Below, piece by piece: positions 1-3,000 of a stretch of DNA of 13,521 nt (the first letter of the stretch is position 1; each line of letters begins with the position of its first letter). The DNA lies in IMG/VR virus record IMGVR_UViG_2703718869_000015. One strand, written 5' to 3'. Made by a program: the position numbers. This DNA comes from a virus. Its lineage: Duplodnaviria; Heunggongvirae; Uroviricota; Caudoviricetes.

Positions 1-3000
1 CACGCTGACGCAGTCACCGGTCAGTGCCTTTGCGGCGGATAAACTGCATGTGACAGACATTACCAGAGGTGCGACTTACCCGGTACTGATAGACAGCATT
101 GCGGTGGAAGTGAACAGCACAGACACTGCGGCATGATAAAAAAACCGCCAGCGACAGGAATGGACGCTGGCGGTGGTGATACCTATGGAGAAAAAATAAA
201 GGAACGATACTTTCGTACTCTGGTTTTTAATGAAAACAGTTCTTATTGTCAACAATAGCGGAAAGAAATTATGACATTTCTGAACCAGTTAATGCTGTAC
301 TTCTGTACGGTGGTCTGTGTGCTGTATCTCCTTTCGGGTGGGTACAGGGCCATGCGTGACTTCTGGCGCAGACAGATTGACAAAAGGGCCGCTGAGAAAA
401 TCAGCGCCAGTCAGTCAGCCGGAAGCAAACCCGAAGAGCCGCTCATTTAGCGGCAACTTTCTTAATCACACCTTTCGACGAGAAAATCCCATGTCAGAAA
501 TTACATCCCTGGTCACTGCAGAGGCAGTGAAGGACGTCCTGCGCTCTGAAGAAGTCCGGAGCGCACTGAAACAGAAACTTCGCCATAACCTGGAAGCGCG
601 TCTTGATGCAGAAGTGGATGCCATTCTGGATGAACTGCTTGGTGTACAGGCAGAGCCACCGACTGAAGCGGGAGATACCACCGCAGAGAGCGGTGAAGTT
701 CAGCCTGAATCACCGGTCGCCGATGCGACTGAACCTCAACCCGAATCGGTCATGATGCTGTAACGGGGAGTCAGGGCCATCAGTAAACAGCTGCTGGCCT
801 TTTTCATGTTGTGAGCTTCCGGATTGCGGGAGACGGGGTATGTACCAGATGGAAAAAATCACAACAGGTGTGTCATACACCACGTCAGCGGTGGGAACGG
901 GCTACTGGTTCCTGCAGTTGCTGGACAGGGTTTCCCCGTCTCAGTGGGCGGCAATAGGCGTGCTGGGGAGTCTGCTGTTTGGTCTGCTGACGTACCTGAC
1001 GAACCTGTATTTCAAGATTAAAGAAGACCGGCGTAAGGCGGCGCGGGGAGAGTAAGCTGATGAGCAGGAAATTCCGCTATGGTTTATCAGCGGTAGTTCT
1101 GGCGCTGATTGCCGCAGGTGCTTCTGCGCCTGAAATCCTCGACCAGTTTCTGGATGAAAAGGAAGGTAACCACACCACGGCATACCGTGATGGTGCGGGG
1201 ATCTGGACCATCTGCCGTGGTGCCATTCTGGTGGATGGTAAGCCTGTTATTCCTGGCATGAAGCTGTCAAAGGAAAAATGCGACCGGGTTAATGCCATCG
1301 AACGTGACAAGGCGCTGGCATGGGTGGAGAAAAACATCAAAGTGCCGCTGACCGAACCCCAGAAAGCGGGGATCGCGTCATTCTGTCCGTATAACATTGG
1401 CCCCGGTAAGTGTTTCCCGTCGACGTTTTATAAACGAATTAATGCAGGTGATCGAAAAGGTGCCTGCGAAGCGATTCGCTGGTGGATTAAGGACGGTGGC
1501 AGAGACTGCCGTATCCGTTCAAATAATTGCTACGGTCAGGTCTCACGGCGTGACCAGGAGAGCGCGCTGGCGTGCTGGGACATCGACAGATAGCAGAATA
1601 TTTTCCTGAAAAATGACGTTGGCCAACGCGGGTGGATAACACGAAATCCTGAAAACTGGTAAAACCTAAGTGAATAAAAGTAAAAACCCCGTTTGTTGGC
1701 AGCAAGCGGGGTTTTGTGTTTTCTGACCTTGAGTAAGGCAAGGGAGAAATTATGGGTAGGGAGGTACTTTCCCTGTGAGGAAGTATAAAAGATTCTTTCT
1801 GAGGTTGTCCATTATGAAAGGCATTGAAGTGGAGACGCCAGCCAGTCTGGATTTAACAAGAGCGGCAGCTTTTGCCATTCGTATTGTGGCCATTGCTGTT
1901 CTGGTCTGGGCAATCCGTTGGTGGTGATATGAACCGTGTTCTGTGCGTGGTTATCATTGTCCTGCTGGTGGCCTGTGGTGCGCTTAGTCTGGGGCTGAAT
2001 CATTACCGTGATCACGCCATCATCTACAAAGAGCAGCGCGATAAAAAAGCCAGTGAGCTGGAGCTGGCGAACGCGACAATTACTGATATGCAGATACGCC
2101 AGCGTGATGTCGCTGCACTTGATGCCAGATACTCGAGGGAATTAGCCGATGCGAGAGCTGAAAATGAAACTCTGCGTGCTGATGTTGCCGCTGGTCGTAA
2201 GCGCCTGCGGATCAACGCCACCTGCTCCGGTACCGTGCGTGAAGCCACCGGCACCTCCGGCGTGGATAATGCAACCGGCCCCCGACTGGCAGACACCGCT
2301 GAACGGGATTATTTCATCCTCAGAGAACGGTTGATGACAATGCAGAAGCAGCTGGAAGGGGTACAGGACTATATCCGCACTCAGTGCCTGAACTAAGTTT
2401 TGCTGATGCGCCGTATCGTCGCTGTATTCCCTCATTAACAGAGACCGCAGCCCGACAGGGAGACTACTCTGCGCGAGTGTGCGGGGATAATCAAAAACGA
2501 TGCACACCGGGTTTTCTCATTTTTCACGAGATGGGAGCGATTTCCCGCGAAGCCGCCTGTCCGGTGCGGTGGTGGAAGAAACCGGATAAAACAACCGCAT
2601 TGTGCAAATATCGATCAAATATGGTGCTGCTGTGTGAAATCTGAAAAATCACAGCGGTCATTATGCATCAGTTTTTAACACAGGACGTCAGAACGTGACA
2701 TGGCAAAGCTGGACTGGAAAAAGCTGGAGCAGGCATTCCGACGCGAACATGCCGAAACGGGAATAACATTACTGGACTGGTGCCGGAAGAAAAAGATTAA
2801 TTACAACACCGCCAGAACCCGTATAAAAATGGGCAAAATCGATCATGAAATTGATCATAAAACCGATCATGAAATCGATCATGACATCTCAGATGAAGAA
2901 CCCTGCAATGACGCGGGTTCCGGCGATGAAAAATGCGCAAAAAACTCTGAAAAAAACTGCGCAAATTCGGCAGAAACGAAACGGATTCGTGGTTCCCGAC

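Follow-up and report, generated by a model that had tools for sequence, protein, structure and literature searches.

What is encoded on the minus strand between the sialate O-acetylesterase gene nanS-p and a small gene of the DUF1378 family in the late region of a Shiga toxin (Stx) prophage? The question is posed by IMG/VR virus record IMGVR_UViG_2703718869_000015, a stretch of 13,521 nucleotides (nt) that we refer to as the window. An initial annotation had read a terminated minus-strand RNA and the neighboring peptide of 59 amino acids (aa) as a module of the hok/sok kind. Our analysis instead favors, with a probability of roughly 60%, minus-strand positions 136 to 252 being a self-contained small RNA (sRNA) gene, a diverged and previously unnamed paralogue of the sRNA Esr41, from which the neighboring DUF1378 gene is separate.

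The unit is composed of elements expected of a short, independently transcribed gene. A perfect -35 hexamer, TTGACA (positions 247 to 252, read 252->247), is followed by a 17-nt spacer (246->230) and a -10-like hexamer, TAAAAA (224 to 229, read 229->224), which lacks the final T and aligns with the -10 region of Esr41 (TTATAT/TATATA). The TTGAC of the -35 element is kept across eight diverged phages and five types of RNA body. In the published sRNAs PasA and PasC, the 5' end lies exactly 35 nt from the first T of TTGACA, and in Esr41 it lies 36 nt away; applying this geometry here places the predicted start at about 216-219 and gives an RNA of 79 to 82 nt ending at 138-136. With the Pas distance of 35 nt taken by itself, the start falls at 216-217 and the length at 79-80 nt, in agreement with the initial estimate. 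The predicted Esr41-like gene, as delimited by promoter geometry and a match to Rfam family RF02676, thus spans 136 to 219 on the minus strand. Its possible 5' hairpin, GUAC-GAAA-GUAU (207 to 218), contains an invariant CGAAAG and matches the position of the Esr41 5' hairpin (GAUGC...GCAUC), although it is weakly supported, with no covariation scored. Farther along is the single-stranded block UUCUCCAU (185 to 192), a probable seed that resembles an anti-Shine-Dalgarno sequence and is invariant in Esr41-like alleles.

The terminator hairpin (145 to 173) has a 9-bp GC-rich stem (173->165 / 153->145), with arms at 145-153 (CCGCCAGCG) and 165-173 (CGCTGGCGG), and an 11-nt loop. It runs into a U7 tract at 138 to 144 (A7 on the plus strand), 1 nt from the nanS-p stop codon. 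An 86-nt minus-strand RNA folds with -24.9 kcal/mol (z = -4.9), a value reached by none of 200 shuffles. The plus-strand copy of the hairpin folds equally well (-26.2 kcal/mol) and continues as TGGTGAT, without a U-tract. The initial annotation had correctly located the hairpin with its U-tract on the minus strand only, the two hexamers with their 17-nt spacing and missing final T, and the 59-aa open reading frame (ORF) at 271-450. It had also proposed that the minus strand carries an independent RNA gene, about 80 nt long and terminated by the hairpin, and this gains support from the promoter geometry of Esr41, PasA, and PasC.

Esr41 (EcOnc14), known from Escherichia coli O157, is an Hfq-dependent, trans-acting sRNA of the SpLE1 (OI-43/48) island of enterohemorrhagic E. 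coli (EHEC). It is bound by Hfq and represses chuA, cirA, and bfr by direct pairing, as compensatory mutants confirm (PMC5286369), and it also lowers expression of the enterocyte effacement locus (LEE) and raises motility. In a permissive Rfam scan, positions 1-74 of the 74-position RF02676 model aligned with minus-strand positions 213->136 of the window and scored 28.1 bits. The E-value was 0.001 when 201 nt were searched and 0.01 when 2 kb were searched; for comparison, Esr41 at its own locus reaches 108.6 bits. Local alignment to the Esr41 locus of Sakai SpLE1 gave z = 9.9 for the window allele, 14 for allele u20, and 22.5 for the PhiR12_3 allele, each relative to 300 dinucleotide shuffles, none of which reached the observed score. 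The window unit and the Esr41 locus align from the -35 hexamer through the U-tail.

Conservation was followed across three sets of loci: diverged phage copies, IMG/VR loci retrieved through the promoter pattern, and loci retrieved through the DUF1378 protein, the last forming an unbiased set. About 40 distinct versions of the unit were found across the collected loci. Every one keeps TTGAC(A/T), a 17- to 18-nt spacer, T(A/T)(A/G)AAA, a body of about 60 to 95 nt, a GC-rich hairpin (-11 to -22 kcal/mol), and T6-T8, and in copies whose flank was inspected the T-run adjoins the stop codon of the upstream esterase allele. Five different RNA body types occur under this one promoter/terminator layout. 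As promoter, stem, and T-run were kept while the body diverged into five types, the unit has the conservation pattern of a gene and not of a spacer.

A complete unit is present at 82/82 DUF1378 loci picked by protein similarity alone, of which 70 are Esr41-like, 7 belong to what we call the L200 type, and 5 to the L136 type. The bodies beside DUF1378 fall into three mutually unalignable types, namely, the 933W/R12/EC3283 group, which has CGAAAG and TTCTCCAT in common, and the L136 and L200 types, while the bodies of PasA, PasC, and a further "unit 2" (described below) are found in prophages lacking DUF1378. The distance from the -35 hexamer to the DUF1378 ATG is 18 nt at some loci and 26 nt at others, and because it varies, the hexamer belongs with the sRNA unit and not with the ORF. 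The 7-bp core of the terminator shows no variation in 17 aligned alleles of the Esr41-like subfamily. Between types, stem differences are compensatory: pair 8 changes from C-G to U-A in the Ss-VASD type, pair 9 from G-C to A-U in Esr41, and pair 6 from A-U to G-C in the L136 type.

The unit is widespread, being carried by 252 phage records and by 918 of 5426 complete E. coli genomes (17%), where it occupies 1970 places with a median of two and a maximum of seven copies per genome. Esr41 proper occurs in 695 of the complete E. coli genomes, nearly always as one copy, and BLAST searches of these genomes gave no cross-detection between the unit and Esr41. Among near-identical alleles, the A-run that forms the -10-like hexamer differs in length (CATTAAAAACC, CATTAAAAAACC, CATTTAAAAAACC, and CATTTAAAAAAACA), and across alleles the terminator T-run is 6 to 9 long. 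Length changes in these homopolymers would alter the spacing of the promoter and could serve to tune expression.

The putative seed UUCUCCAU is identical to the opening 8 nt of UUCUCCAUGGGG, the seed of Esr41, and is invariant in Esr41-like alleles while its flanks drift; the sequence that follows it is AGG in 104 loci, UGGG in 35, GAAU in 21, and GGGU in 5, and the exact 11-nt Esr41 seed, UUCUCCAUGGG, is found in 5 loci. In Esr41 itself, mutation M1 (GGG to CUC in UUCUCCAUGGGG) is matched by chuA-M1 and cirA-M1, and mutation M2, which alters UCCCUCCGC, is matched by bfr-M1 (Table EV8, PMC5286369). For the window RNA, the predicted duplex at the chuA site has an energy of -13.6 kcal/mol, which beats 97.6% of shuffles.

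These features suggest how the gene might work. A sigma-70 promoter (perfect -35, 17-nt spacer, A-rich -10) would drive a transcript of about 80 nt from about 216-219, which would stop at the intrinsic terminator with its U-tract against the nanS-p stop codon. Because it would be transcribed against the Q-dependent late operon, the sRNA could be made in the lysogen while the late genes are silent. By analogy with Esr41, the contacts to Hfq would be made by the terminator hairpin together with the U-tail and a U-rich stretch upstream, all of which are present in the window RNA. The invariant unpaired UUCUCCAU(AGG) may then pair with host mRNAs at their Shine-Dalgarno or start regions, and the most likely target is chuA, given the verified pairing of Esr41. 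We infer a trans-acting, Hfq-dependent sRNA with a target set that would overlap that of Esr41 without being identical to it.

The position of the unit also has precedents. On the minus strand of E2348/69, PasA is mapped to 743499->743415, with a minor form extending to 743264, and PasC to 1290909->1290832 (Pearl Mizrahi et al., PMC8550237, Table S6). At the PasA locus the sialate esterase gene ends at 743265, and at the PasC locus it ends at 1290830, so PasA and PasC occupy the same position as the window unit. Both are abundant and northern-confirmed, depend on Hfq for stability, and are covered by data from ligation and sequencing of interacting RNAs (RIL-seq) (PMC8550237). Their EHEC homologues, EcOnc51 and EcOnc52, have peaks in Hfq cross-linking and analysis of cDNA (CRAC) in Sp12 and Sp4 (PMC4104026). 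The esterase-pas-holin arrangement has been set out by Zhu, Shabalina, and Storz (bioRxiv 10.64898/2026.05.13.724894), whose BLAST survey for Pas genes recorded PasA in only 25 phage genomes; set against the 252 phage records found here, this count indicates that the window unit was not recognized as Pas in that survey. The unit thus sits in a conserved slot just downstream of nanS-p in lambdoid prophages, which elsewhere is occupied by PasA, PasC/EcOnc52, or one of two unnamed bodies, each laid out in the same way with promoter, body, and terminator. The sequences of these occupants show weak similarity to the window RNA or none detectable, and the pairwise z-scores to PasA and PasC (4.4-5.6) come mostly from promoter and terminator.

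Several results weigh against a diverged Esr41 paralogue. The score of 28.1 bits is far under the Esr41 gathering score of 102, so that formal Rfam membership fails, and at the gathering threshold Rfam returns nothing in the whole window. The PhiR12_3 allele reaches only 16.6 bits against the Esr41 covariance model; it therefore fails as a covariance-model bridge to Esr41 even though it is the closest by plain alignment (z = 22.5), and the two methods are inconsistent on this allele. RNAalifold on the 17 subfamily alleles recovers the 7-bp terminator core alone, with zero covariation. A consensus promoter scan rejects the TAAAAA -10 for its missing conserved final T, and TTGACA occurs 8 times in the window against 8.4 expected, so that a promoter above chance is not demonstrable from the window alone. 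Pairing is also reduced: the predicted chuA duplex is much weaker than that of Esr41 (-13.6 versus -23.2 kcal/mol), and the predicted bfr duplex is no better than shuffles, bfr pairing being lost. An nhmmer profile of the Esr41-like subfamily finds no matches in PasA, PasC, the Sp4/Sp12 units, or the L136 and L200 types. We make no claim of homology to the Pas sRNAs and the unnamed bodies for this reason; on sequence grounds, the relation to them is positional and architectural, with homology not demonstrated.

Evidence from published expression data is likewise unfavorable. Table S2 of Tree et al. 2014 (PMC4104026) contains no Hfq peak at the Sp5 copy, and we found no published direct expression data for this copy. 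The filter in that study kept sites that are antisense to a coding sequence (CDS) or more than 100 bp from one (PMC4104026). The gap between nanS-p and the 59-aa ORF measures 134 bp in the layout of the annotated phage records, and the whole of it fails this filter because all of it lies within 100 bp of a CDS. A 2025 review of phage sRNAs and a paper on vesicle-borne sRNAs do not mention the locus.

A more far-reaching proposal, which we regard as unlikely, treats the nanS-p 3' flank as an exchangeable sRNA slot with at least five bodies (Esr41-like, PasA, PasC/EcOnc52, L136 type, and L200 type), in which the resident cassette sets the regulatory repertoire of the lysogen. In this proposal the Esr41-like occupant would additionally have a dual role, repressing iron and colicin receptors in trans and acting as a brake on lysis genes in cis; such a dual role would amount to toxin-antitoxin-like logic without a classical toxin.

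The cis half of that proposal can also be held by itself. The RNA is fully complementary to the late (pR'-driven) nanS-p-DUF1378 transcript and could serve as an antisense brake or insulator through RNase III cleavage or promoter interference, so that lysogens would make less DUF1378, DUF826, holin, and endolysin by accident. Such a function could coexist with a trans role. A unit lies ahead of DUF1378 in 82/82 loci whichever of three unrelated bodies it carries, a perfect linkage in E. coli prophages that a mechanism independent of body sequence would explain; since the linkage holds whatever the RNA body, a body-independent cis role stays alive. The unit is, moreover, always convergent to the late operon and adjoining nanS-p, PasA forms RIL-seq chimeras with its own nanS 3' end and the adjoining intergenic region (PMC8550237), and convergent sRNA genes recur downstream of pR' (Tree et al. 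2014, PMC4104026). However, Esr41 acts in trans although its locus contains no trace of nanS-p or DUF1378, and the PasA and PasC loci have neither DUF1378 nor DUF826. Drift in the body spares the seed block, which does not vary, and this argues for selection on trans pairing over cis complementarity. Q-modified RNA polymerase and abundant late mRNA would also probably swamp a weakly promoted sRNA. On balance, a cis brake as the function of the RNA appears improbable.

We think it quite unlikely that the minus strand makes no RNA at all. The hairpin would then stabilize or weakly terminate the nanS-p message, and TTGACA would be a chance or vestigial match; this is in keeping with the stability of the plus-strand hairpin (-26.2 kcal/mol), with the chance frequency of TTGACA in the window and the poor -10, and with the lack of a reported Hfq peak at the Sp5 copy. 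Yet no allele has a U-tract on the plus strand, whereas T6-T8 on the minus strand is universal, and the -35, the spacing, and the -10-like hexamer are kept over five otherwise unalignable bodies. The similarity to a validated sRNA is significant over the full length, promoter included, and the positional equivalents are abundantly expressed. On the plus strand, an ORF of 41 aa at 133-258 (933W Orf24, VT2-Sakai H0118, PHROG 9558), which several phage records annotate and which is the sole plus-strand ORF under the RNA, is exactly antisense to the proposed sRNA gene. Its equivalents across alleles are 8, 12, 14, 15, 21, 31, 32, or 41 aa long or are without an ATG; because the length varies and coding is not conserved, this ORF is probably a misannotation.

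The remaining alternative turns on the DUF1378 gene (271 to 450, plus strand; 933W Orf25, VT2-Sakai H0119, ECs_1210; Pfam PF07125, E = 2e-39; PHROG 494). Its product matches PF07125 with 134 bits against a cutoff of 25, over profile positions 1-59 of 59. The initial annotation had raised the possibility that the frame is not conserved as coding; it is coding, with a ratio of nonsynonymous to synonymous polymorphism (pN/pS) of ~0.2-0.3 (0.24 pooled over 40 distinct coding sequences; median, 0.20 over 318 pairs), and the helix and an AAEKISASQS motif are conserved. By these sequence measures, DUF1378 is a real gene under purifying selection. A single hydrophobic helix (residues 3-21) is followed by four K/R residues, so the peptide does have the one helix, charged tail, and size of a type I toxin, as had been observed. 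By the positive-inside rule, its predicted topology suggests N-out/C-in, the opposite of the Hok orientation. The homology search against toxin families that had been called for matched only DUF1378: neither Hok_Gef, Ldr, Ibs, or TisB nor any other toxin family appears at E <= 1, and PADLOC gives no match. For DUF1378 and DUF826, NCBIfam and PADLOC return no function.

Context points to the lysis genes. The order nanS-p, DUF1378, DUF826, holin holds in all E. coli contexts, placing DUF1378 in the Q-dependent late operon near the holin, and promoter prediction finds nothing upstream of it. An end of the RNA lies 53 nt upstream of the DUF1378 ATG, with no overlap of the ORF or its ribosome-binding site (RBS), in line with the initial remark that the RNA would pair upstream of the RBS and not with the RBS itself. 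In RNAduplex comparisons of each RNA with its own DUF1378 start (-25 to +30) in 19 allele pairs, z ranged from -1.7 to +1.5, with no signal. Obligate pairing of RNA and DUF1378 also fails, for although they are linked in 82/82 E. coli-type loci, each occurs alone elsewhere: the DUF1378 loci of Lonsdalea and Cedecea have no antisense RNA unit, and the Esr41, PasA, and PasC loci have no DUF1378. Moreover, the RNA bodies beside DUF1378 are of three unrelated kinds. The prophage of Lonsdalea britannica (L142, 1267-2650) has its DUF1378 homologue (Pfam E = 2.7e-17) immediately after the genes for holin, lysozyme, and Rz, and the ATG of the homologue overlaps the stop codon of Rz; this placement suggests a functional tie between the family and the lysis cassette. 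The homologue in Cedecea neteri lies among Mu-like genes. We read DUF1378 as a small membrane protein that is distinct from the RNA, belongs to the late operon, moves with the lysis cassette, and is not a target of the RNA.

A type I toxin-antitoxin-like module, in which DUF1378 would be a membrane toxin restrained by the antisense RNA, is therefore highly unlikely: the size and shape of the peptide (59 aa, helix 3-21, charged tail), the constant linkage in E. coli prophages of divergent neighbors 18-26 nt apart, and the textbook pairing of Sok upstream of the hok RBS are outweighed by the lack of overlap with ORF or RBS and of above-chance pairing in any allele, by a late-operon position, flanked by nanS-p and the holin, with no predicted promoter, by the absence of similarity to Hok/Gef and other toxin or defense families, by a predicted topology opposite to that of Hok, and by DUF1378 relatives that lack the RNA (Lonsdalea, Cedecea) and RNAs that lack DUF1378 (Esr41, PasA, PasC).

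The genes around the unit identify its source. Over bases 1-900, identity is 99.9% to phage 933W, to VT2-Sakai (Sp5), and to some 100 further Stx phages, a match that identifies the window as late-region DNA from a 933W-like Stx prophage; between 100 and 470, the sole mismatch to Sakai is G258, where Sakai has A. The predicted sRNA gene corresponds to about 1272085-1272168 on the minus strand of Sakai NC_002695.2. The 3' end of nanS-p (933W L0105, sialate O-acetylesterase) covers 1 to 136, with a TGA stop at 134-136 and 99.9% identity to sequences annotated L0105/NanS. Beyond DUF1378 lie the DUF826 gene (491 to 763; 90 aa, a short form of 933W L0106, H0120; Pfam PF05696, E = 2.6e-29), which always comes after DUF1378 and ahead of the holin; the P21-type pinholin gene S (840 to 1055; Pfam PF04971, E = 7e-33); the endolysin gene R (1060-1593), assigned from the annotation of matching phage records and one of the plus-strand late genes; and an Rz ORF (1872-2396; Pfam Phage_lysis, E = 1e-49). 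The ORF list is consistent with the initial statement that all genes of the window are on the plus strand. Between 131 and 262, the window is also 100% identical to the chromosome of E. coli O111:H8 strain 7-32 9A.

Farther downstream, the match to 933W ends after S and R. The 933W genes ant and bor are absent from 1594-2720, and only three phage records cover this segment to at least 80%. On these grounds, the prophage is a mosaic and not 933W itself. The gap between R and Rz (1594-1871) is unusually long, at 278 bp. It contains a hairpin at 1683-1715 with 15 pairs and flanking A4 and T4, which is terminator-like on both strands, and a minus-strand promoter-like site (TGGACA at 1811->1806, 18 nt, TATACT at 1787->1782) that matches at 10/12 positions; about 70 nt past this site come the hairpin and then UUUUUACUUUUAUU. 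By its sequence, the gap seems to hold another sRNA gene, some 90 nt long and oriented against the late operon, although the Rfam matches in it are at chance level.

Other prophages show additional variety around the esterase gene. The PasA locus (L004, 2755-3045, in E2348/69 PP2; L015, 1900-2190, in Sakai Sp12) has a pair of minus-strand units in tandem, both equipped with a TTGACA and a terminator, and the distal one, unit 2, adjoins the esterase stop codon. Sakai Sp4 (L014, 2500-2620) retains unit 2 alone, and the Hfq peak EcOnc52 falls there. In the literature, PasA has a minor form of 236 nt; it ends at the unit 2 terminator and therefore may be read-through into a second sRNA gene. Bodies of the L136 type (L136, 2363-2475, and L139, 2354-2475, minus strand) start with GCGUCCUGCAUGUUUUGC, and those of the L200 type (L200, L174, L165, and L201) are about 95 nt long and contain ACACCGCAGACUUCGGUGU. 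Both types have the same promoter/terminator layout, lack UUCUCCAU, and stand beside a diverged or an ordinary DUF1378; neither matches a named family, and on their sequence features they are candidate new sRNAs.

In E2348/69 PP2, a plus-strand terminator-like hairpin, GCCGTCAGTGGGTGACACTGGCGGC, followed by TTTTTTG, lies just ahead of the holin start (L004, about 3125-3170), inside the 210-bp stretch from PasA promoter to holin that is without DUF1378 and DUF826. Upstream of the esterase, STnc100 matches above the Rfam gathering score occur at L136 46-295, L139 109-275, and L015 4174-4346; the match at L004 628-832 is the exception to this level, at 41 bits, and published PasD2 coordinates fall there. 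The L136 upstream region has adjacent subthreshold AsxR- and AgvB-like matches on the opposite strand. Given the STnc100 and the AsxR- and AgvB-like matches, many prophages have sRNA genes on both sides of the esterase. Two known late-region sRNAs were set aside as identities for the window RNA: AsxR, whose place 282 bp 3' of stx2B is upstream of nanS-p and so not within the window, and HnrS (EcOnc10-12), a different late-region sRNA.

Published work describes Esr41 as an EHEC-specific, single-locus sRNA of SpLE1 that controls heme and siderophore receptors, sensitivity to colicins Ia/Ib, the LEE island, and motility. If the unit is expressed, diverged paralogues of Esr41 that keep the chuA/cirA seed core are present in Stx2 and Stx1 phages and in many further lambdoid prophages, and single esr41 deletions may understate the role of the Esr41 RNA family. 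Stx phages would also gain a second link to host iron and heme regulation, besides AsxR across nanS-p. For annotation, the 41-aa ORF (933W Orf24, H0118) would probably be just the antisense strand of an sRNA gene, and DUF1378, as a conserved small membrane protein, becomes a separate question from the sRNA.

How does the locus compare with known systems? With hok/sok it shares a short terminated RNA beside a gene for a small one-helix membrane peptide, and Sok likewise pairs upstream of the hok RBS. It differs in that the RNA neither overlaps nor pairs with the translation start of the peptide, the peptide matches no toxin family, DUF1378 has no predicted promoter of its own, and RNA and peptide each occur without the other in related elements; the hok/sok-like module of the initial annotation, with no RBS complementarity above chance, no toxin family, and separable partners, is accordingly not upheld. 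AsxR and AgvB are short Hfq-bound RNAs that, like the predicted window RNA, are convergent to the late operon and downstream of pR' (Tree et al. 2014). In Sp5 and 933W, AsxR is found at the opposite side of this nanS-p gene, and it touches heme uptake via chuS, but sequence and position are unrelated, and AsxR sponges FnrS and does not pair with mRNA.

The Pas sRNAs and EcOnc51/52 are closer in arrangement. They too lie between a sialate esterase gene and the holin gene, antisense to the late operon, and have the TTGACA-17-TnA(A/G)AA promoter geometry, a length of 78-85 nt, and a terminator with a GCCAGC stem; in PasC and EcOnc52, as here, the terminator U-tract adjoins the esterase stop codon. 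Unlike the window locus, the Pas loci lack DUF1378 and DUF826, and the PasA seed sits in its terminator arm, in contrast to the UUCUCCAU block of the window RNA.

Esr41 is the closest in sequence. Both RNAs are about 75-80 nt long, with an alignable TTGACA-17 promoter, a possible short 5' hairpin at the corresponding position, and the series UUUUCUCCAU-(G/A)GG-UAU-..CC.CCGCC(A/G)GC, then the terminator and U7-AU. The two differ in that identity is about 60-65%, the -10 is weaker here (TAAAAA versus TTATAT/TATATA), the seed continues with AGG here and with GGGG in Esr41, and the bfr seed UCCCUCCGC of Esr41 reads CACCACCGC here. Esr41 lies beside iha as a single copy, with no nanS-p or DUF1378 remnant, whereas window-type units are located where nanS-p meets DUF1378 in lambdoid prophages, Stx prophages among them, and are often present more than once.

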